Part shown: positions 31,304 through 53,099 of the stretch, in pieces
Layout: each line of letters starts with the position of its first letter
Position numbering within the stretch: position 1 is the first letter of the stretch
NCBI GenBank assembly: GCA_043806595.1
Contig: JAZDGU010000018.1
Coordinates: 1,400 to 65,399 of the forward strand
DNA: 64,000 nucleotides
Reading direction: 5' to 3'
From: Candidatus Micrarchaeota archaeon
GTDB lineage: Archaea > Micrarchaeota > Micrarchaeia > Norongarragalinales > SBBD01
Translations under genes and position numbers: made by a program
The notes under the pieces: generated by a model
What the model was told of the DNA's origin: nothing
The model's input: the letters and a program-made list of their open reading frames with translations, nothing else
Database searches by the model: none

Positions 31304-33151
31304 CTAAGGCCGGATTTTCGATCGGAAATAGTTTTCAGTATTCTTATCCATAAAATAGACGTAACAACCCTTATGTGCTCTTGACATTAACACTCGGTAA
31401 ACGTTTTGAAGATGTTGAGTGAATTTTGAGTTATTTCTTTTTACCATATTATCAAAAGACTTGTCAGGATTGCTCTTCCATTTTCCAAGTTTGGGTTCAT
31501 AGACCAAGTCTTCTCCAAAAATTACCCCTATATAATCAAATTCGAATCCTTGGGCGGTATAAACCGTACCTACTTGCTGCATTCCGGTATCATCAGTTGC
31601 CCATTTCCAGAAATCATTCTTTTGTTCCCACGGCATTTTGAAATCCCCAATTACGACGTCATTAACCAAGCTTTTGTCTGGTTTGGGTTCGCTCCACCGC
31701 CAATTAAAACCTGCGACTATACGAGCGCAATTCTTTTTTTCCAGATTTTTCTGGTCTATTGCTGCCTTGAGATCAAGCGGGCTTGAGAAAATCTTGAAAT
31801 CCATTCTTTCGTTCTTTTCCAGGAATTGTTTCTCCGTTTCTGTGATTCCGAGGATATTCTCAACCCATTGGAGGAACGAATCGGAGCCACTACACCGGAA
31901 TTGAGTTTTTAGATCGAATTCAGAAATTTCTGCATCGAATTTCTTCGCTGAATCTCGAATTAATTGAGTACTTCCAACTTCATTTGGCCTCACTACCTGA
32001 TGTTCATCGATAAAGAAAATAGACATCATTGCAGGTCTAATCAAATCGTTGATTTGCGGCTCCTTTGACCTGAATTGATTGGGAACCCCGTAATTGTTGC
32101 TGTCTTTGCGAATACGGTGTGCCTCGTCGCAGATTAAGACGTCGATTTCATTATCTTGGTGTTTACTGAAACTGTAGAAGAACCTGAACCTGTCCTTGAG
32201 CCTCGAGCCCAAGATTTTTTGCAAAGTCTTTGTGAATGCCGACGATCCGGTTGCATGGTATGGGATTTTGTTCATAGACATGAGTTCGGCCATAACTTGG
32301 AGAGCAATTACCGATTTTCCAGTTCCCGGCCCTCCTTTAACTATTATTACTGATTTTTTTCCATCCTTTGCTAGCTTTTTGGCGTTATGCATTATTGCGT
32401 TATAGGCGACAATCTGATCGTCGATTAAATTGAAGACTTGCTGCTGATTTAGCATTTCTTTAGTGTGTTCGAGAAGTTTCTTGGACGGCCTTATCGGCGA
32501 ATAATTGAATTTCTTAAGAACTTCCGCACCATCGCCGTGGGATAATCTTTTTCTTATGTATTCTGAAAGGTTAGGGACCTCCTCCTTGAGAAAAACCGGA
32601 TATTTCTGAATATCATTACGGAATTTTTCAGACTGCAGCAGATTATTTGATTTGTTCGTGTAATTGTGACAATATGCGCAACCGCTCAATTCCAATTTTC
32701 CATCTTCTTGGAAAGCGGTATTATAGTCGGTTAACCCGTAATAGTATCCTTCAACTTGAAGCGATGGATGGGGCTTGACTTCCCATCCCCAACTGTATTC
32801 TACTTGTAGATTCCCGTCGGCTTCACAATCTCGGACCTTCTCGTTAGACCATTGTTTCAATTCTACCAAAACGACATTTCCTTTCTTAAGTTCATCCTCC
32901 CCGAAAACCATCACATCTATCCTTCGCGATGCGAATGGAAGTTCATATTCTACCGTCATCATGTTTTCGGACATCTTGGAATACTCGAAAACGTTTTTCA
33001 TGAAGTTTAGTGACACGTTCCAAGAATTAGCTTCCGATGAATTGACATTTCTACCATAATAGTCACGATATCGTTGTTTCATTTTGTCTACAAGAGAATT
33101 CTGAAGCATTTCTTGCGAAAAGTTCTGGATTGTTCCTTCGAATAGCCTCAT
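31304..33151 (-). CDS. PD-(D/E)xK nuclease-like N-domain fused to DUF2075-type P-loop NTPase (Schlafen/UvrD-like ATPase)
   Basis: N-terminus RRIDVMVFG...VVLVELKQW (D...E.K nuclease triad). Walker A KGGPGTGKS, Walker B VLICDEAHRI. Low-GC codon usage unlike the flanks. Confidence 0.7.
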   Translation of the reverse strand: MRLFEGTIQNFSQEMLQNSLVDKMKQRYRDYYGRNVNSSEANSWNVSLNFMKNVFEYSKMSENMMTVEYELPFASRRIDVMVFGEDELKKGNVVLVELKQWSNEKVRDCEADGNLQVEYSWGWEVKPHPSLQVEGYYYGLTDYNTAFQEDGKLELSGCAYCHNYTNKSNNLLQSEKFRNDIQKYPVFLKEEVPNLSEYIRKRLSHGDGAEVLKKFNYSPIRPSKKLLEHTKEMLNQQQVFNLIDDQIVAYNAIMHNAKKLAKDGKKSVIIVKGGPGTGKSVIALQVMAELMSMNKIPYHATGSSAFTKTLQKILGSRLKDRFRFFYSFSKHQDNEIDVLICDEAHRIRKDSNNYGVPNQFRSKEPQINDLIRPAMMSIFFIDEHQVVRPNEVGSTQLIRDSAKKFDAEISEFDLKTQFRCSGSDSFLQWVENILGITETEKQFLEKNERMDFKIFSSPLDLKAAIDQKNLEKKNCARIVAGFNWRWSEPKPDKSLVNDVVIGDFKMPWEQKNDFWKWATDDTGMQQVGTVYTAQGFEFDYIGVIFGEDLVYEPKLGKWKSNPDKSFDNMVKRNNSKFTQHLQNVYRVLMSRAHKGCYVYFMDKNTENYFRSKIRP

Positions 33152-33157
33152 AAGAAT

Positions 33158-33535
33158 CTACAACTCATTATATTTTTTATTTGAACCGCGTGATTTCTCG
33201 ATTGGATACTTTTTCTCATTCTTTTCCATCTTCTTTTCAAGAGCCGATGCAAGGTCGATGTCGTATTTCTGGGCTAGCCTGAGCAGGAAGTAGAGCACGT
33301 CGGCCATTTCTTCGGAGATTTCCTCCTTCTTGTCGGCGTTAGCAAACATTTCCTCGATTTCCTTATCGGATTTGAAGCGAAAGTGCTCCAAAAGCTCCGA
33401 GGATTCGGTAGTGACGCCGATGGCTAGGTCTTTGGCACCGTGGTATTGGTCCCAGTCGCGTTCTTCGCAGAACTGCCTGACCTTAACCTTCAACTCATGA
33501 AGGCTAGTCTTGTCGTCCGTCATCAATGCCCCCAT
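33158..33535 (-). CDS. MazG-like all-alpha nucleoside triphosphate pyrophosphohydrolase
   Basis: EExxE-type motifs TTESSELLEHF and EEMADVLYFLLRLAQKYDIDL. The start is taken at MGALMTDD. The upstream extension to 33685 is out-of-frame overlap with the HNH gene. Confidence 0.65.
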   Translation of the reverse strand: MGALMTDDKTSLHELKVKVRQFCEERDWDQYHGAKDLAIGVTTESSELLEHFRFKSDKEIEEMFANADKKEEISEEMADVLYFLLRLAQKYDIDLASALEKKMEKNEKKYPIEKSRGSNKKYNEL

Positions 33536-33578
33536 CGGTTTCTCTTTAATATTGTTGAATGAATCGGTTTTTATTAAT

Positions 33579-34280
33579 TCATTCAATCTTTGCCCGCTTT
33601 TGAAGATTATGTCGTGCGCATAATATTTGGATATTTTCGACAAGCAAAGACGTCCCTCCCTTCGAATAAGGAAGAACATGGTCAAAATGAAGATTATCTT
33701 TTCTGTGGCACTTTATACACTGTCCTTTATCCCTTTTCCAAACTTCAAGTTTAACATTAGACGGAATTAAACGAGAGTGTTCCAAATCGGTTGTATCTTC
33801 AATCTCTTTCCCTTCAGCAATCTCCAAACGAAACTTGAACACCTGCCGGCCATCACTGGCTTCTTGCCAAGCATTAACTAATCTAAACAACCCGTTGAAA
33901 ACCCAAATTCCAGGCTTGAGCTTCTCATATACTTTAACGAGTTCTGGCTCCGGTTTATCATTCTTGCAACGGATCGCTGCGTCATAAAATAGTAAATTTT
34001 GAGTTGGACTTCCGTCAGAATCGCGAGATGGTTGATCTACGGACTTTGGGTTGCCAGTTACTTCACGTCTTGAAATATCGTGGCCTTCATATATCAGCAC
34101 TTTTCCGTTTTCTTCTACCCGGTCTGCATAGGGGGCGTTGGGTCGTAAACTCATTAAAATTACACTAACGTTGCGTCCCTTGAGATGGAAATTCATTCCC
34201 CTTTGAAGGCTAGAACCTTCCTCTGAACACATTTCCCAATAAGAAATGACGTCTCCCGGTTTGATCACGCAAGCCCCCAA
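33579..34280 (-). CDS. HNH endonuclease with N-terminal PUA-like (SRA/EVE-like) putative modified-base-binding domain
   Basis: C-terminal HNH CIKCHRKDNLHFDHVLPYSKGG...NIQILCARHN. N-domain segments KVLIYEGHD and PGIWVFNGLFRLVNAW resemble the YTGSGG / YDGIYKV strands of SRA-type domains. Confidence 0.65.
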   Translation of the reverse strand: MGACVIKPGDVISYWEMCSEEGSSLQRGMNFHLKGRNVSVILMSLRPNAPYADRVEENGKVLIYEGHDISRREVTGNPKSVDQPSRDSDGSPTQNLLFYDAAIRCKNDKPEPELVKVYEKLKPGIWVFNGLFRLVNAWQEASDGRQVFKFRLEIAEGKEIEDTTDLEHSRLIPSNVKLEVWKRDKGQCIKCHRKDNLHFDHVLPYSKGGTSLLVENIQILCARHNLQKRAKIE

Positions 34281-34472: not shown

Positions 34473-35843
34473 TTACATGTCCTGCAGGTCGAAGGCGAGG
34501 TAGCCCGCGTTGCGGAGCTTGTTCTTGCCAAAGATCTTTCTTGCAACCAGGCCAAGCCGCGGCTTGGACGCGAGCCCGTTCACGTAGCCTGCCTTGCGCT
34601 CAAGCGCCTTGAATTCCTTCAGGGGTTGCGTGACTTCCGCCCACTTGAATTCGAAGGCGTAAACTTTCTTGGCTGAGTCCTGCGCCATCAAGTCGATTTC
34701 GTACGCGTCCCTCCCCTTTTCGCCGCCCCCGATTTTTCCCCACTGCCGCCTTGCCTTGTACAACCCGAGCTTTCCGACGGCGAATTCCCGCGCGGCATAC
34801 TCGAAGGCCCTGCCCGAGTATGCGCCGAGGCTGCCCTTCACCGAAGAAATGAATCCGGGGTCCCTTGAGGCGTATTCCGAGTAACGCCGGTTGATTGCGG
34901 TGAACCAGAAGCGCATGAGTGGGTGCTTGAGGCGGTATGCGCCGCGCTTGCCGGAGAAAGGCATTTCCAGTTCGATGAGCTCGAAGTAGTCCTTGAGCTC
35001 GTTCACCTGCCGCGTTATGGACGTGGAAGGCGTGTTCAAGGACGCGGCGATGGAAGAAAGGGTGTTGCTTCCGTCGGCAATCGCCTGCAGGATGGAGTAG
35101 TACGTGCCGCTCCTTCCCCCAAATTCCTGGGACAGGATGCCCGTCACCTCGTCTTCGAGGGGCGCGTTCTTGGCCAACAGGAGCGCGTCGATGATTTGTG
35201 CCGCGGTCTTTCCTTGCAGGCCGTAGTCTTCGGCCGCGACGTAGTATTTGGGGTAGCCGCCGAACACGCCGTAGAGTTCGACCAAGTCCTCCTTGCGGAG
35301 GGAAAGCTCATTGCCGAAGTCGAAGCACGACGAGAGGGATAGGGGCTCCAACCTCCAGTTTTTCTTCACCCGCCCGTAAAGGGGCTCCTTGGCGTCCTGG
35401 AAGGCGCTCTTCATCAGCCCGATCAGCGAGCCGGATAGGACGACAAGGCCCGGCGAGCCCTCGTTCAAGTCGATTGCCTTTTGGAAGGCGCCGAATGCGG
35501 CTGGCTCGACGGAATTGAAGTTCTGGAACTCGTCGAATACGACTACGCCGGGGTTGCGTTTCACGAGCGCATCGGCGAACTGGTCCCACGAATGCACGGA
35601 TTCCAGCGCGCCAAGCGCGCCGTGCTTGCGTAGGATTTCCTGGAATTCCTTGAGCAGCTCGCCCGACGGCTTGTTCTTGTTTACAAAAAAATACGCGCCC
35701 CGGTCTTTGAGGAATTCCACCAGCAGCCGGGTCTTCCCGACCCGCCGCAGCCCGTACAGTGCGACGATGAAAAGCTTTTTCCTTGAAAGCGTTTCGAGTT
35801 CCCTTAGTTCCTCAAGTTCCGCGCCCCTATCCACAAACTTCAT
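34473..35843 (-). CDS. Archaeal ATPase (PF01637-like) with C-terminal DUF234 domain
   Basis: N-terminus FVDRGAELEEL...LYGLRRVGKT (Walker A), Walker B VVVFDEFQ, and a DUF234-type C-terminal region. Confidence 0.65.
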   Translation of the reverse strand: MKFVDRGAELEELRELETLSRKKLFIVALYGLRRVGKTRLLVEFLKDRGAYFFVNKNKPSGELLKEFQEILRKHGALGALESVHSWDQFADALVKRNPGVVVFDEFQNFNSVEPAAFGAFQKAIDLNEGSPGLVVLSGSLIGLMKSAFQDAKEPLYGRVKKNWRLEPLSLSSCFDFGNELSLRKEDLVELYGVFGGYPKYYVAAEDYGLQGKTAAQIIDALLLAKNAPLEDEVTGILSQEFGGRSGTYYSILQAIADGSNTLSSIAASLNTPSTSITRQVNELKDYFELIELEMPFSGKRGAYRLKHPLMRFWFTAINRRYSEYASRDPGFISSVKGSLGAYSGRAFEYAAREFAVGKLGLYKARRQWGKIGGGEKGRDAYEIDLMAQDSAKKVYAFEFKWAEVTQPLKEFKALERKAGYVNGLASKPRLGLVARKIFGKNKLRNAGYLAFDLQDM

Positions 35844-45210: not shown

Positions 45211-46665
45211 ATGAACCAATTCATTTCGAAGATAACCGAGAGGCTGGCCGGAAGGAGGCTCATCGTGGCGTCGAGCAGCGAACCGTACGTCCACTATTTG
45301 GAGGAGGAGGAAATCAAGTGGAGGCGTGGCACCGGGGGAGTGGTGACCGCGCTGGACCCGGTCCTCGCAGCCACAGGCGGGACGTGGGTCGCCCAGTCGT
45401 CGGGGGACGCCGACCGGCAGGCCTGCGATGAGAAGGGGTACGTGAAGGTCCCGCCGGAAAGCGGGGCGTACACCCTCAAGCGCATCTTCGTATCGAAAAA
45501 GGACGCGGCCGCATGCGGCAACGCGGCGAACGGCGCGCTCTGGCCGCTTTCGCACATAGTATACGTGAGGCCGCGTTTCGTCGACGAGGAATGGGAGGCA
45601 TTCCGGCAGGTTAACCGGCGGTTCGCGGAGGCGATAGCCGAGGAGGCCAAAAAAGGCGAAAGCGTCGTCTGGCTCAACGACTACCAGCTCGTGCTGTGCG
45701 CGAAATACGTTAAGGAGCTGGTTCCCGACGTGCCGACGGTCTACTTCTGGCACATCCCGTGGCCGAACCCGCAGGTCTTCAAAATCTGCCCCTGGCACGT
45801 GGAAATCATGGACGCGGTGCTCTCCAACGACATCATCGGGTTCCACACCCGCTACCATTCCGTCAACTTCCTGGACTCCGTGGACCAGACGATCGAGGCC
45901 CGCGTAGACCGCCCGGCGTCGTCCGTGCACTACAAGGGCAGGGAGGTCACCGTGCGCGCGCTGCCCATCAGCGTCGACTTCGACGGGATTAGCGCCGCAG
46001 CGGAAAATGTCGGCGAGGGCGCGATTAGGAGGGCGAAGCGCAGGTACGGCATAGGCAAGGGGGCGCTGGTGGTCGGCATCGACCGCATGGATTACACGAA
46101 GGGATTGGCGGAGAAGATCAAGGCTATTGACGAATTCCTGCAGAAGCACCCAGAAAGCGCCGAAAAAATCACGCTCGTGCAGATTGCCTCGCCGACGCGC
46201 ACGCACCTCGAGGCATACAGGCAGACTGCGGAGGAGGTGGAAACGCTCGTGGAGGAGGTCAACTGGAGGAACTCCACCGACTCGTGGAAGCCCATTATCT
46301 TCGAGAACAGGTATGCGTCCACGGAGGAAATCTACACGCTCTACGGCCTCGCGGACGTATGCATCATCACGCCGCTCCATGACGGCATGAACCTCGTCTC
46401 GAAGGAGTTCGTGGCCGCGAAAAACGACGGCAACGGCGTGCTCATACTGAGCAAGTTCGCCGGCTCGAACGCGGAGCTCAAGGACGCGCTTTCCGTCAAC
46501 CCGTTCTCCACGAACGAGGTCGTCGCCGCGCTGGAGACCGCGCTCCAGATGCCGATTGAGGAGAGGCGGGAACGGATGACGCGCCTGCGCGCGGAAGTCG
46601 GTGAAAACAACGTCTTCAAGTGGGCCTCGGATTTCCTGAGCATGGCCGCCAAGGTAAGGGGTTGA
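45211..46665 (+). CDS. otsA: Trehalose-6-phosphate synthase (GT20)
   Basis: GT20 hallmarks WLNDYQL, FWHIPWP and GIDRMDYTKG. Confidence 0.85.
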   Translation: MNQFISKITERLAGRRLIVASSSEPYVHYLEEEEIKWRRGTGGVVTALDPVLAATGGTWVAQSSGDADRQACDEKGYVKVPPESGAYTLKRIFVSKKDAAACGNAANGALWPLSHIVYVRPRFVDEEWEAFRQVNRRFAEAIAEEAKKGESVVWLNDYQLVLCAKYVKELVPDVPTVYFWHIPWPNPQVFKICPWHVEIMDAVLSNDIIGFHTRYHSVNFLDSVDQTIEARVDRPASSVHYKGREVTVRALPISVDFDGISAAAENVGEGAIRRAKRRYGIGKGALVVGIDRMDYTKGLAEKIKAIDEFLQKHPESAEKITLVQIASPTRTHLEAYRQTAEEVETLVEEVNWRNSTDSWKPIIFENRYASTEEIYTLYGLADVCIITPLHDGMNLVSKEFVAAKNDGNGVLILSKFAGSNAELKDALSVNPFSTNEVVAALETALQMPIEERRERMTRLRAEVGENNVFKWASDFLSMAAKVRG

Positions 46666-47447
46666 CTGCCGTGCGCGTTCCACACACGTTCCGCAGACGG
46701 CTCGGCGAATGCAAGCGCCTCCTGTGCGCGTTCGACTTCGACGGGACGCTCTCCGAGATCGCCCCCACGCCCGGGCAGGCAGCGGTATCCCGGGGAATGC
46801 GCGAGATGCTCGTCCGGCTGGAGGGGCTCGCCGACGTCGTAATCGTGAGCTCGAGGAGGGCGGGCGAGCTCAGGAAAAAGCTGCCTTTCCTCAGGCGCGC
46901 AGGATTCTACGGAATGCATGGGCTGGAGACCCCGCACGGCAAGCTGAAGGTGCCCCGGGGGCGTCTGGCCGCTGTCGAATCGGCAAAGGCGGAGGCGGCA
47001 AGGCTCATCGCACCGTTCAAGGGCGCATGGATAGAGGGCAAGGATTCCGGATTCTCGGTGCATTTCAGGGACGTCGCGCCCGCAAGGCAGGAACCGCTCG
47101 CGGAGGCGCTGATGCGGAAGATGAAAAGCAGGCGACTGCTGGTCTACCGCGGGAGGAAGGCGGTTGAAGTGCTCGCCCGGGGAAGCCCCACGAAGGCCTC
47201 CACGCTGCACTCGATTTCAAGACGATTGCCGCAGGGCACGCTTATGCTTTTCTTCGGCGACGACGAGGCCGACGAGGCCGCGTTCCAGGCGCTCGCACGC
47301 GAAAAGAACTTCGTAGGCGTCGCGGTGGGCAGGAAAAAGACGTCCGCGGGGCTGACCGTGATAAACCCGCGCGGAGTCGAGGAATTCCTGCGCTATATTA
47401 ATAACCTCCTATCGCTAACGAATCCGGCGGGAGGGCCGCCGGTGTGA
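46620..47447 (+). CDS. otsB: Trehalose-6-phosphate phosphatase (HAD)
   Basis: HAD motif I FDFDGTL and C-terminal GDDEADE. The true start is probably a few codons after 46665. Confidence 0.75.
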   Translation: MGLGFPEHGRQGKGLTAVRVPHTFRRRLGECKRLLCAFDFDGTLSEIAPTPGQAAVSRGMREMLVRLEGLADVVIVSSRRAGELRKKLPFLRRAGFYGMHGLETPHGKLKVPRGRLAAVESAKAEAARLIAPFKGAWIEGKDSGFSVHFRDVAPARQEPLAEALMRKMKSRRLLVYRGRKAVEVLARGSPTKASTLHSISRRLPQGTLMLFFGDDEADEAAFQALAREKNFVGVAVGRKKTSAGLTVINPRGVEEFLRYINNLLSLTNPAGGPPV

Positions 47448-47451
47448 AACG

Positions 47452-48810
47452 ATGCACGCGCTGAACAAGTACGCCGAGTTTTCGGGCCACGGGGTCATCG
47501 ATGCGATAAGAAGGGAGGCCGGCGACCTCGAGGGCAAGTCGTTCGTCCACGTCAACTCCACCTACTACGGGGGCGGGGTCGCGGAAATGCTCAACTCCTA
47601 CGTCCCGATGCTCAACGACGCCGGCGTGAGCATGGACTGGCGACTTCTCAAGGGCAGCAAGGAATTCTTCTTCATAACCAAGAAGCTGCACAACGCGCTG
47701 CAGGGAAAGCGCGAGATGCCGTCCGCGGAGGAAATCGCGGCGTACGAGGAAACTGTGGCGACGAACGCGAAGTTCTCGAACCTGCGGATGTACGACTGCG
47801 TGATCATCGACGACCCCCAGCCAGCGCCGCTCGTAAACCATTTCCCGAGGAGCTCGCCGGCGCTTTGGAAGCCGCTTCCGCTGCTGCTCGAGCTCGAGGC
47901 CTTCCAGCGCAGGCAGCCGTGGGTGTGGCGCGCGCACATAGACATGAGCAATTCCTACCCTCCCGCGCTCGAACTCATGCGGAAATACATTTCAAAATAC
48001 GACGCGGCCATAGTGTCCCTCCCGTCGTACGCGAAAAATCTGGGAAAGCCGTTCTTCGTCATCCCGCCGGCAATCGACCCGCTATCCGAGAAGAACAGGC
48101 CCATGACCCCCGATGACGCCGAGCGCCTGCTGGGCAGGTTTGGAGTCGATTGCAGGAAGCCGATCGTCGCCCAGATCTCGAGGTTCGACCCGTGGAAGGA
48201 CCCGCTGGGCGTCATCGCCGCGTTCAAGTCGGTGCGGAAGAAGGCGAAATGCCAGCTGGTCATGCTCGGCAGCCATGCCGCAGACGACCCCGAGAGCGAG
48301 ACCGTCTTCCAGCAGGTATTCCGCATAGCCGAGAAGGAGAAGGACGTGGCCCTGCTCACCGTGCAGAGCGACATGCTGGTGAACGCCCTACAGCGCAAGG
48401 CGAGCGTAATCGTGCAGAAGTCCGTGCGCGAGGGATTCGGGCTGACCGTCAGCGAGGCCCTGTGGAAGGGCACTCCCGTCGTGGCCTCGCGCGTGGGAGG
48501 CATCCCGCTGCAGGTCGACGACGGCCTCAACGGCTTCCTCGTCACCGGGACCAAACAGTGCGCGGACAGGATAAGCTACCTGCTGAAGAACCCGGCGACG
48601 GCGAAGGCGATGGGCGCCGCTGGCGCGGAAAAAGTGCGAAGGAACTTCCTCATGCCGCGGCTGGTCCTCGACGAGATCCGCATGCTGAAGAAGATGACCA
48701 AAGCGGGAAAGACCATACGCCCGCCAAAGGCGGTGGAAGCGTTCCTCGGTCTGCTAAAAAAGACCCCGCGCATCGTGCGCAGGGGGCTCAAGCTGCTCGC
48801 AAACGACTGA
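47452..48810 (+). CDS. treT: Trehalose glycosyltransferring synthase TreT (GT4)
   Basis: HVNSTYYGGGVAEML, DPQPAP, WRAHIDMS, QISRFDPWKD and REGFGLTVSEALWKG align across the full length with Thermococcus TreT. Confidence 0.8.
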   Translation: MHALNKYAEFSGHGVIDAIRREAGDLEGKSFVHVNSTYYGGGVAEMLNSYVPMLNDAGVSMDWRLLKGSKEFFFITKKLHNALQGKREMPSAEEIAAYEETVATNAKFSNLRMYDCVIIDDPQPAPLVNHFPRSSPALWKPLPLLLELEAFQRRQPWVWRAHIDMSNSYPPALELMRKYISKYDAAIVSLPSYAKNLGKPFFVIPPAIDPLSEKNRPMTPDDAERLLGRFGVDCRKPIVAQISRFDPWKDPLGVIAAFKSVRKKAKCQLVMLGSHAADDPESETVFQQVFRIAEKEKDVALLTVQSDMLVNALQRKASVIVQKSVREGFGLTVSEALWKGTPVVASRVGGIPLQVDDGLNGFLVTGTKQCADRISYLLKNPATAKAMGAAGAEKVRRNFLMPRLVLDEIRMLKKMTKAGKTIRPPKAVEAFLGLLKKTPRIVRRGLKLLAND

Positions 48811-51211: not shown

Positions 51212-51706
51212 TCAGGCCGGCGGAACCCCGTCGGGCGATGCTGGTTCAAGCGGCTCGACAGCCGGAGGCTTGGGTTTGCGCAGGGAAGAGGAATAGTACA
51301 CCGCGCCGTCGACGCTGTCGAGGATGATGCACGAGAAGCCGCCGGGCACGGAGAAGATGCGCCGCCAGTTGGCCTCCTCCTCGACGCCGTCGCGGGAGAA
51401 CACGCGGAGCAGGAGCGTATTGTCCTCCACGGCGCGCAGGTCCGCGCCGGCGCGCTTGCCGAGGCCGACGAGCAGGTCGAAGTCGATGCTCCAGTAGCGG
51501 TCGTGGTAGTCCGCCCACTGGAGGTAGAGGATGCGGGACTCCGGGCGGGCGTTGCGCGCGATGATGCTGCACGCGAGCCAAGAGAGCCAGCGCGCGCTCG
51601 GCGAGCGCAGGGTCAGGATGCCGCCGCTCACGCCGAGCAGCGCGTCAAGGTCCGGCCTGCCGGTCAGCAAGCGTTGCATGGTCGCGGTTTCCGCGGTCGA
51701 GAACAT
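51212..51706 (-). CDS. RecA-superfamily (KaiC/RadA-like) fragment lacking Walker A, ending in the GAVYYSSSLRKPKPP tail
   Basis: LTGRPDLDALLGVSGGILTL resembles the KaiC N-terminus but has RSPSARWL in place of GxxGxGKT. A Walker-B-like IILDS follows, then the tail shared with the 37465-40035 protein. Confidence 0.35.
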   Translation of the reverse strand: MFSTAETATMQRLLTGRPDLDALLGVSGGILTLRSPSARWLSWLACSIIARNARPESRILYLQWADYHDRYWSIDFDLLVGLGKRAGADLRAVEDNTLLLRVFSRDGVEEEANWRRIFSVPGGFSCIILDSVDGAVYYSSSLRKPKPPAVEPLEPASPDGVPPA

Positions 51707-51995
51707 CGAGGTCGCACCTCATGCGGGTCAGCATCACCAGGAGGATGGCGACGCCGATGTCCGCCTCGTCCGCGGCGTCGATGGCGGTGCGCCGGTTGCG
51801 CGCGCGGGAAAGAAGCGAGTCGAAGGCCTCGCGCTCGTGCGCCGGCAGGGAGTCGCGCAGGCCGCGCCAAGAGGCCAGCTTGGAGTCGAGCCTCGCCGTA
51901 ACCGAAGGAATGCTCCTGCCCATACGCCCCCAACCCCGTAGCAGGGAAGCGTTGGGGCGGGAGGGTAATAAGGCCGTTGCGGGACCGCGTTTCCG

Positions 51996-53099
51996 GTGCG
52001 GTTAAAAAACTCCGCCGGGGACACTCTTTGCATGGGCTTGCGCGAAAGGGAGCTGGAAATCCGCGGGAAGCTGCGGCCGTTTGTCGAGAGGTCACTGGGG
52101 GACAAGACTCCGCTGGACACCAGGCACCCGCACGCAAGGCCGATAATAATGGAGCTGAGGAGGGTGCGCGACGGGAATGGCGTGCCGTACGCGGGCCACG
52201 GCACGTTCCGCGGCTACCTCGAGAAAAGGTTCGGGTACATGGGCCACCACGGCCTGGCATATATGCACCCGAGGGAAGCCATCGACTATGCGGAGAGGCT
52301 CGCGGCAATGATTCTGCCGAGGCAGGACCGCAGGAGGAGGAGGCAGCCGCTCAGGCCGGAGGACTGGAGGGTCTGGGATACTGCTAGAAGGATGCTGCAC
52401 GAGCACGGATGGTTCGACTTCCAGGAGCTGGCAAGGAACCACGGGGACCTCACGCGCACCCAGCTCGTCTACATCGTGGGCAAGCTCCAGCTCGCGAAAG
52501 TACTGGGAAAGGCGCCAAAAAGGCGGAGCGCGAGGAGGACGAAAGACAAGAGGAAGGCGGACGAGAAGCACGAACTATATAGGATGTACGAGCACCTCGT
52601 GCCCGAACTCGCGCGCCAGATTGCAAGGCGATACGGGGGCCTTTTGGAGAGGGACGAGATCGAGTCCTCTAACCGCATGGCGCTGCTGCGGACGGTAAGG
52701 AAGCTCGACAAGCGTGCAGCCGAGCTGAGGAAGGTGCAGTACATCCGGAGGGCGATGATCAACGCAGCAAGCAACCTCGCAAGGCATGCCGGAAGAGGCC
52801 GCGCGGACATGCATATCACCGGAAGAGACGGGGAGAATCTGCAGGAAGGGGGTTCCGCAAACGGCGCGGAAGATGTGACCCGGGGTCATGAGACGATGGA
52901 AGGAGTGCGGCAGCTGCTGGAGCTGCACCGCGCCGGAAGGATGACCGAGAACCACGTGCTGGCGCTGCTGCTGAACGGAAGGCACGGCCTGCAGGCAACG
53001 CAGATCAGGGGGATACTCGGAGGGGTTGGCAAGTCGCAGGCGTGCAGGATATTGAAGGAGGCGAAGGAGAGGAGCAGGGTAGGGCCAAGGGGGTCCTGA
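51996..53099 (+). CDS. Sigma-70 region 2 / region 4-like domain protein with unknown N-terminal domain
   Basis: YEHLVPELARQIARRYGG...DEIESSNRMALLRTVRKLDKRAAELRKVQYIRRAMINAASNLARH parallels sigma region 2 (invariant N retained). C-terminal ENHVLALLLNGRHGLQATQIRGILGGVGKSQACRILKEAKER parallels the region 4 HTH. Confidence 0.45.
   Translation: MRLKNSAGDTLCMGLRERELEIRGKLRPFVERSLGDKTPLDTRHPHARPIIMELRRVRDGNGVPYAGHGTFRGYLEKRFGYMGHHGLAYMHPREAIDYAERLAAMILPRQDRRRRRQPLRPEDWRVWDTARRMLHEHGWFDFQELARNHGDLTRTQLVYIVGKLQLAKVLGKAPKRRSARRTKDKRKADEKHELYRMYEHLVPELARQIARRYGGLLERDEIESSNRMALLRTVRKLDKRAAELRKVQYIRRAMINAASNLARHAGRGRADMHITGRDGENLQEGGSANGAEDVTRGHETMEGVRQLLELHRAGRMTENHVLALLLNGRHGLQATQIRGILGGVGKSQACRILKEAKERSRVGPRGS

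Follow-up and report, generated by a model that had tools for sequence, protein, structure and literature searches.

A sigma-like gene and its likely start

The DNA analysed here, one 64-kb stretch of contig JAZDGU010000018.1 that we call the window and that is the extent of this organism's DNA covered, carries on its forward strand a gene whose product we identify, through comparison of its sequence family with known proteins, as a genuine, very diverged homologue of the sigma-2 and sigma-4 domains of sigma-70-family factors. The longest open reading frame (ORF) at the locus has 367 codons, begins with GTG and spans exactly 51996..53099 (+) in window numbering. The same gene is entered at NCBI with a start at ATG 52032, as the 355-aa hypothetical protein V1787_02280 of a metagenome-assembled genome of Candidatus Micrarchaeota archaeon. 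Residue numbers throughout follow the 367-aa (GTG) version.

ATG 52032 is likely the true start, rather than the upstream GTG, because the N-terminus of the homologue P0002, which opens with MGKNRRLSPEELD, aligns to MGLRERELE at M13 of the window protein, and because a TATA-like box is centred about 26 bp upstream of this ATG (Table 1). Archaeal TATA promoters whose transcripts have a short leader or none are expected to show this box-to-start spacing, and TTAAAAAA is a putative promoter of this kind. Comparable A/T-rich boxes precede the start codons of many other window genes by 24-40 bp in DNA whose overall GC content is 62%, and the GC at the three codon positions of the sigma-like gene (0.61/0.46/0.80) is in line with adjacent genes. 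An archaeal promoter of the usual TATA type would drive the gene.

Homology to sigma-70 factors appears at the level of the family

Searched alone, the window protein matched nothing in Pfam with the cut-off relaxed to E <= 10. Its weak single-sequence matches were all to sigma factors (FliA in NCBIfam, E 0.024; WhiG and RpoE in the PDB, E 0.094 and 0.8) and none was significant, such that single-sequence searches of Pfam, NCBIfam, PHROGs and the PDB settled the sigma question neither way. Word-indexed homologue searches returned just the protein itself and one homologue, P0006, and a look-up of the exact 355-aa sequence retrieved no contig. An exhaustive phmmer/HMMER search of 1.84 billion representatives recovered six distant homologues (P0002-P0007, E 6e-22 to 4e-6, 27-33% identity), giving a family of seven clusters in that collection with identities of about 23-33%.

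A profile of these seven sequences (alignment A1), compared with all PDB sequences, matched sigma factors only among the 60 matches listed (best E 1.3e-9), including SigA, RpoS, FliA, WhiG, SigB and SigH, and the sigma-2 region (independent E ~1e-6) and sigma-4 were matched separately. Because sigma-4-type helix-turn-helix (HTH) domains are common, a second profile was trimmed to the sigma-2 region (alignment A4, 83 positions). It again retrieved sigma factors only, among the 60 matches listed, and hit an isolated RpoS sigma-2 domain at E 1.2e-7 with regions 2.1-2.4 covered. Alignment of A1 with the single E. coli FliA sequence by hhalign gave a probability of 93% and E 3.5e-7 over FliA 10-236, the whole factor, whereas in the alignment of the family with RpoE only sigma-4 was aligned, at 29% probability.

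Individual homologues carry part of the same signal. P0003 passes the gathering thresholds of two Pfam models, Sigma70_r4_2 with 48.2 bits and Sigma70_r4 with 40.9 bits. P0006 reaches 25.7 bits with Sigma70_r4_2, which is the cut-off, and in P0005 the full length of the Sigma70_r2 model is aligned (E 4e-4, 20.5 bits), under the 24-bit gathering score. The HMMER comparison with Sigma70_r2 and Sigma70_r4_2 that a preliminary description of the locus had proposed comes out in part, with nothing for the window protein itself, Sigma70_r4_2 in two homologues and a sub-threshold Sigma70_r2 in a third. The Sigma70_ECF model (ECF, extracytoplasmic function) reached E 0.003 at best, in one homologue only.

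Domain architecture and predicted structure

The modules follow one another as an N-terminal helical domain, a module resembling a winged HTH (hereafter wHTH), a linker rich in lysine and arginine (KR-rich), sigma-2, a disordered linker in which sigma-3 is missing, and sigma-4 (Table 1). An AlphaFold2 model built with the 7-sequence alignment has a mean predicted local distance difference test score (pLDDT) of 71, with the modules at about 80-87 and the linkers disordered, the low-confidence linkers being residues 108-116, 175-185 and 268-298. Of the top 50 Foldseek matches to the model 49 are sigma factors, led by WhiG (prob 0.99) and including SigW, AlgU and RpoE, with E-values that are not significant.

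Table 1. Coordinates of the sigma-like gene, its promoter-like element and the modules of its product, with the counterparts of key sigma-70 residues
Feature	Position (window or residue)	Strand	Residues, predicted helices and remarks
TATA-like box TTAAAAAA	52002..52009	+	A/T-rich octamer
Likely coding sequence of the sigma-like protein	52032..53099	+	355 aa plus stop
N-terminal helical domain	52032..52316	+	Residues 13-107; helices 8-36, 47-55, 71-79, 92-105
Three-helix winged-HTH-like module	52347..52505	+	Residues ~118-170; helices 121-137, 142-148, 154-166; pLDDT ~80-88
Basic KR-rich disordered linker KAPKRRSARRTKDKRKADE	52506..52562	+	Residues 171-189; pLDDT < 50 at 175-185
Sigma-70 region 2-like domain	52563..52796	+	Residues ~190-267, regions 2.1-2.4; helices 193-198, 201-212, 219-236, 243-266
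Disordered linker at the sigma-3 position	52797..52895	+	Residues 268-300, 33 residues; pLDDT 26-43
Sigma-70 region 4-like HTH domain	52896..53078	+	Residues ~301-361, regions 4.1 and 4.2; helices 301-312, 318-330, 334-340, 346-361
Asp ending region 2.2	D238		Invariant in the family; helix kept
Counterpart of sigma-70 Y430	Y249		Kept in most members
Counterpart of sigma-70 Q406/E407/N409	S224/S225/R227		Replaced; Q/E/N not conserved in the family
Counterpart of sigma-70 W433/W434	R252/A253		Replaced; WW pair absent from E. coli FliA too
Counterpart of sigma-70 Q437	N256		Not conserved in the family

Much of the layout that the preliminary description had read from the letters is upheld. The sigma region 2 domain that it placed at residues ~195-265 is recovered with slightly wider limits by the A4 profile and by the FliA alignment, and the region 4-like HTH that it saw at the C-terminus is found there by Pfam Sigma70_r4 and Sigma70_r4_2 in homologues and by alignment to sigma-4 of both FliA and RpoE. 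The basic KR-rich linker is likewise present. The sigma-2 relationship, which that description would have given up had both a Sigma70_r2 signal and a sigma2-like helical bundle been missing, is upheld by the family-level homology, which is real; the four helices predicted for sigma-2 may form such a bundle. Its unrelated N-terminal domain of ~170 aa exists as a stretch of the protein and has to be divided, into a helical domain of ~95 aa and the wHTH-like module.

The helical domain is specific to the family, with an occupancy of 0.64; the first ~80 residues are absent in three of the seven members, and no Pfam, PDB or fold match was found for the first ~100. The wHTH module is clearest in P0003, whose equivalent segment exceeds the cut-offs of Pfam HTH_24 (24.6 bits) and HTH_36 (25.7 bits) and also matches TrmB, while the segment in the window protein gives weak sequence matches only (MarR, E 0.12; S25e, E 0.029). 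When the N-terminal half was modelled on its own (pLDDT 67), Foldseek retrieved only wHTH domains (Lrp/AsnC, LexA, MntR, DeoR), over ~50-60 residues at prob <= 0.90 and E >= 0.5. At the other junction a sigma-3 domain was not found, the sigma-3 of FliA being aligned by hhalign to gaps or to the linker.

P0003 (545 aa, L002 524-2161) is internally duplicated and reads N-domain, wHTH, sigma-4, then wHTH, sigma-2, sigma-4, which shows that a wHTH and sigma-4 unit can exist in the family without sigma-2. This extra unit supports a modular use of the domains in DNA binding, and we hold it somewhat more probable than its alternatives taken together that the protein is a sigma-derived, multi-HTH transcription regulator that binds DNA sequence-specifically. 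On this account the family would go back to a bacterial ancestor of the sigma-70 family, most akin to group 3 and groups 1-2 (FliA, WhiG, RpoS), and would have lost sigma region 3 and gained the N-terminal helical domain and the wHTH module. The sigma-4 HTH and the wHTH would contact DNA, with the basic linker assisting, and the sigma-2-derived helical bundle may act in protein-protein contacts or as a scaffold.

Conservation and the fate of sigma residues

In bacteria, regions 2.1/2.2 and 4.1 are the surfaces that bind the RNA polymerase core. The sigma-70 residues Q406/E407/N409 of region 2.2 we take to be contacts to the beta-prime clamp helices and core, and Y430, W433 and W434 of region 2.3 to be the aromatic residues of -10 melting. 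Key positions were read from alignments of the family to RpoS, FliA and sigma-70 (Table 1). The best conserved segments of the family are sigma 4.1, 2.2 and 2.1, with sigma-4 as the most conserved segment, and the least conserved are region 2.3-2.4, the most variable folded part, and the linker at the sigma-3 position, which is lowest of all. The preliminary description had pointed to a conserved Asn of the -10 recognition helix; this residue, N256, varies among the homologues and the claim falls.

Archaea transcribe with an RNA polymerase II-like enzyme together with TBP/TFB/TFE (PMC7289017). A canonical sigma function of the window protein is implausible, because its host, as an archaeon, would initiate with TBP/TFB/TFE and would have no bacterial core polymerase, and because the residues that contact beta-prime are replaced. 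The protein was not classed as a functional sigma factor, on the grounds that the clamp-binding residues of region 2.2 are not kept.

Several points weigh against the reading as a DNA-binding regulator. That 2.1/2.2 and 4.1 are conserved at ~25-30% identity could mean that the protein still docks on a polymerase, something for which a simple repressor or activator has no need. This conservation could equally be structural, because the same segments form the cores of the domains and the conserved positions are largely those of the hydrophobic core. DNA binding by the sigma-like protein, like its regulatory role, its use of the promoter and its partner, is itself an inference, whereas homology, domain layout, archaeal residence and the pattern of conservation are what the sequences show. 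The window protein by itself has no significant match to an HTH or sigma model, such that everything depends on homology at the family level, and in the structural comparison the E-values of the fold search are not significant and the confidence of the model (pLDDT 71) is moderate.

The same pattern of conservation motivates the main alternative, which we judge unlikely and in which the protein would be a sigma-like accessory factor of the archaeal RNA polymerase. Sigma-2 would dock on the clamp coiled-coil of Rpo1 (A'), and sigma-4 and the wHTH would read promoter DNA and redirect or boost TBP/TFB-dependent initiation at a specific regulon. The clamp coiled-coil is structurally conserved across the domains of life, and that of Rpo1 corresponds to the clamp helices of beta-prime in bacteria. 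As among bacterial sigma paralogues, the core-contact regions 2.1/2.2 and 4.1 are the best conserved and the DNA-reading regions 2.3-2.4 the most variable, and the sigma-2 domain has been retained in members that share only ~25-30% identity. To set against this, the polar residues with which sigma-70 contacts beta-prime are not kept at S224/S225/R227, most of the conserved positions lie in the hydrophobic core, and we know of no equivalent of the beta-flap tip in archaeal RNA polymerase that could bind sigma-4. Castelle et al. raise involvement in transcription alongside TBP/TFB/TFE as an open possibility for archaeal sigma-70 genes (PMC8204110). A sigma-like promoter-specificity role, in which the retained sigma-2 and sigma-4.1 surfaces would dock the protein on archaeal RNA polymerase, on the Rpo1 clamp coiled-coil for instance, and in which it would act beside TFB/TFE or replace them at some of the promoters of Micrarchaeota, appears quite improbable to us.

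A bacterial sigma gene that arrived by horizontal transfer and now decays without a function would account for a protein too diverged for any Pfam model, with sigma-3 lost and key sigma residues replaced. The reading frame is, however, intact in seven lineages at low identity, conservation follows the domains, family-specific motifs such as LHK.GKMSENH are conserved and domains have been added, all of which argues for purifying selection. We regard decay, together with its companion explanation of a mis-binned bacterial contig that is taken up below, as very improbable, and the DNA-binding regulator remains the reading that we prefer.

Archaeal residence, neighbourhood and distribution

The window encodes family-B DNA polymerase (PolB), SMC, archaeal-type LonB, a DRG/TGS GTPase, ATPase_2 AAA proteins, ion exchangers and trehalose-synthesis genes, and the sigma-like gene lies among housekeeping and transport genes. 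Contigs of homologues carry corresponding markers. Locus L005, whose contig is named Micrarchaeota, has prefoldin and PcrB, L003 has an FtsZ that shares a 90%-identity cluster with a Micrarchaeota FtsZ, and L006 has ribosomal protein S26e. The preliminary description had taken the protein to be encoded by an archaeon, and these genes agree with it. Bacterial mis-binning was rejected on account of the archaeal marker genes on the window contig and on the contigs of homologues, and the codon bias of the gene is likewise host-like. On this sequence evidence the sigma-like gene is a resident gene of an archaeal chromosome and mis-binning is unlikely.

The family is so far very rare and, on present evidence, restricted to Micrarchaeota. 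A pattern-based scan of GTDB species representatives found no member, and one of metagenome contigs found a single fragment, L007. No family match was found in PHROGs, in a pattern-limited scan of IMG/VR or among INPHARED phages by tblastn, and a scan of neighbouring genes matched no integrase, transposase, capsid or terminase family. Within the reach of these pattern-limited scans viral origin is unsupported. Neither the earlier suggestion that the gene could be virus-derived nor a recent acquisition finds backing in viral hallmarks nearby or in these collections, and the codon-position GC and the promoter are host-like. Comparison of neighbours across the loci revealed no conserved flanking gene, no anti-sigma gene (FlgM- or RsiG-type included) and no operon partner, and the repeats found in the upstream region were short two-copy matches only, which we judge to be due to chance.

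Toxin-antitoxin genes adjoin homologues in three of the five informative loci, ParE in L001 and L005 and DUF3368/PIN in L003 and L004, which indicates that some family members sit in variable regions. The genes lie at L003 7406-8604 and L004 156-1354 (DUF3368/PIN-like with a 175-aa partner) and at L005 11410-11908 (DUF7557 and ParE), directly beside family members on other Micrarchaeota contigs. On the metagenomic contig L001 the homologues are tandem paralogues (3-227 and 824-1963), and the space between them holds a gene for a ParE toxin and a small ORF that resembles an antitoxin.

These neighbours bring in another explanation, to which we assign a small probability, namely that the protein regulates a mobile or variable compartment (an integrated plasmid, a provirus remnant or a toxin-antitoxin/defence island) and controls the element rather than host genes. 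The toxin-antitoxin genes, the tandem paralogues that flank the ParE pair in L001, the patchy and very rare occurrence of a family absent from the scanned GTDB species representatives, and an ATPase_2-type AAA gene two genes downstream of the sigma-like gene in the window are consistent with such a role, and a 2025 study reports divergent rpoS-like genes in DPANN viruses (PMC12647753). The window itself speaks otherwise, as the neighbours there are housekeeping and transport genes and the GC at third codon positions and the promoter are like those of the host. The negative results for integrase, transposase and capsid families among the scanned neighbours and for IMG/VR, INPHARED and PHROGs, and the lack of any neighbour conserved across loci, likewise count against it. 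A sigma-derived regulator of DNA-binding type, resident on the chromosome, thus continues to be our preferred interpretation.

Further features of the window are recorded for completeness. Divergently upstream of the sigma-like gene lie two overlapping ORFs, 51212-51706 (-) and 51645-51923 (-), which have no Pfam or PHROGs match. At 31304-33685 (-), with 34473-35843, there is a low-GC island, whose GC of 0.41 contrasts with ~0.62 in the window as a whole. It carries genes for a Schlafen-group-3-like helicase (PF09848, E 4.9e-89) and for a MazG-like pyrophosphohydrolase, adjoins an ATPase_2/DUF234 gene and has the look of a defence islet gained by horizontal transfer. Trehalose-related genes occupy 45211-48810 (+), with a Glyco_transf_20/trehalose-6-phosphate synthase-like gene, a 275-aa ORF and a TreT-type GT1. 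Two Na+/H+ exchangers and a Na+/Ca2+ exchanger flank this cluster, and the stretch suggests an osmoadaptation region.

Implications

Promoter recognition is usually held to have been solved in mutually exclusive ways that define the domains of life, by sigma factors or by TBP/TFB. The sigma-70 genes of DPANN archaea have been noted before and never explained, and the present family shows that at least one such lineage was kept under selection long enough to pass beyond detection by Pfam, to lose sigma-3 and to acquire new, putatively DNA-binding domains. A lineage kept for so long and so extensively remodelled argues for a real, adapted function in the archaeal cell rather than for a transient transfer. 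With one gene and four modules it offers a compact test case for distinguishing a sigma-2 domain that engages the archaeal polymerase from sigma domains recycled as generic DNA-binding modules. Docking on archaeal RNA polymerase has a low probability and a high value, since, if true, it would mean that a bacterial initiation module had been re-wired to the archaeal polymerase.

Comparison with known systems

Among known factors the family most resembles group 3 sigma factors of the FliA/WhiG type. Sigma-2 (2.1-2.4) and sigma-4 (4.1-4.2) are homologous and stand in the same order, FliA and WhiG gave the best single-sequence matches, FliA aligns over the whole factor, WhiG is the top Foldseek match, and the sigma-4 motif of the family, S..rVr.Ie..A, is of the Sigma70_r4 type of groups 1-3. 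Unlike FliA and WhiG, the family has no sigma-3 and has a disordered linker of 33 residues in its place. The window protein also carries ~180 extra N-terminal residues (helical domain, wHTH and KR-rich linker), the core-binding residues of region 2.2 are replaced in the family, the host is archaeal and no FlgM- or RsiG-type anti-sigma gene lies nearby. Assignment to group 3 was rejected on the missing sigma-3 domain of the window protein.

The resemblance to ECF factors (RpoE, SigW) that the preliminary description proposed holds for the layout and fails for sequence affinity. The family shares with them a minimal arrangement of sigma-2, linker and sigma-4, and two homologues match Sigma70_r4_2. 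Its sequences are nevertheless closest to FliA, WhiG, RpoS and SigA, of groups 1-3, and no ECF sigma was among the top matches listed for either the full or the sigma-2-only profile. A long N-terminal extension does not belong to the ECF type, and there is no anti-sigma neighbour. Assignment to the ECF factors (group 4) was rejected, as RpoE aligns in sigma-4 only, Sigma70_ECF reaches E 0.003 in one homologue and no neighbour is conserved.

The expectation, voiced in the preliminary description, that archaea should not encode sigma factors had been overtaken by the literature. Castelle et al. (2021) described sigma-70-class genes in DPANN genomes, mainly in Woesearchaeota, as fam00359, excluded mis-binning, found no anti-sigma factors and left the mechanism unclear (PMC8204110). 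The window family agrees with fam00359 in consisting of sigma-70-family homologues on DPANN archaeal contigs with no anti-sigma gene. By description the two are set apart, as standard annotation recognises fam00359 as sigma-70 whereas the window protein escapes Pfam, and as the window family is found on Micrarchaeota-type contigs only and has the extra N-terminal domain and wHTH. A sigma factor in an archaeon is already known, and what is new here is a far more diverged variant with a distinctive architecture; a literature search found no paper on this Micrarchaeota family or on its wHTH fusion.

The best functional analogy is offered by archaeal regulators in which an HTH of sigma region-4 type serves as an ordinary DNA-binding domain. 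To our knowledge the proteins in question, Tfx, Bat/HTH_10 and LuxR-type solos, have no sigma-2 domain. The use of sigma-4-type HTHs in this way has been described for Tfx, Bat and LuxR-type regulators (PMC5413776), and the window family, in contrast to them, keeps sigma-2 and sigma-4 in the order of a sigma factor and adds a wHTH.

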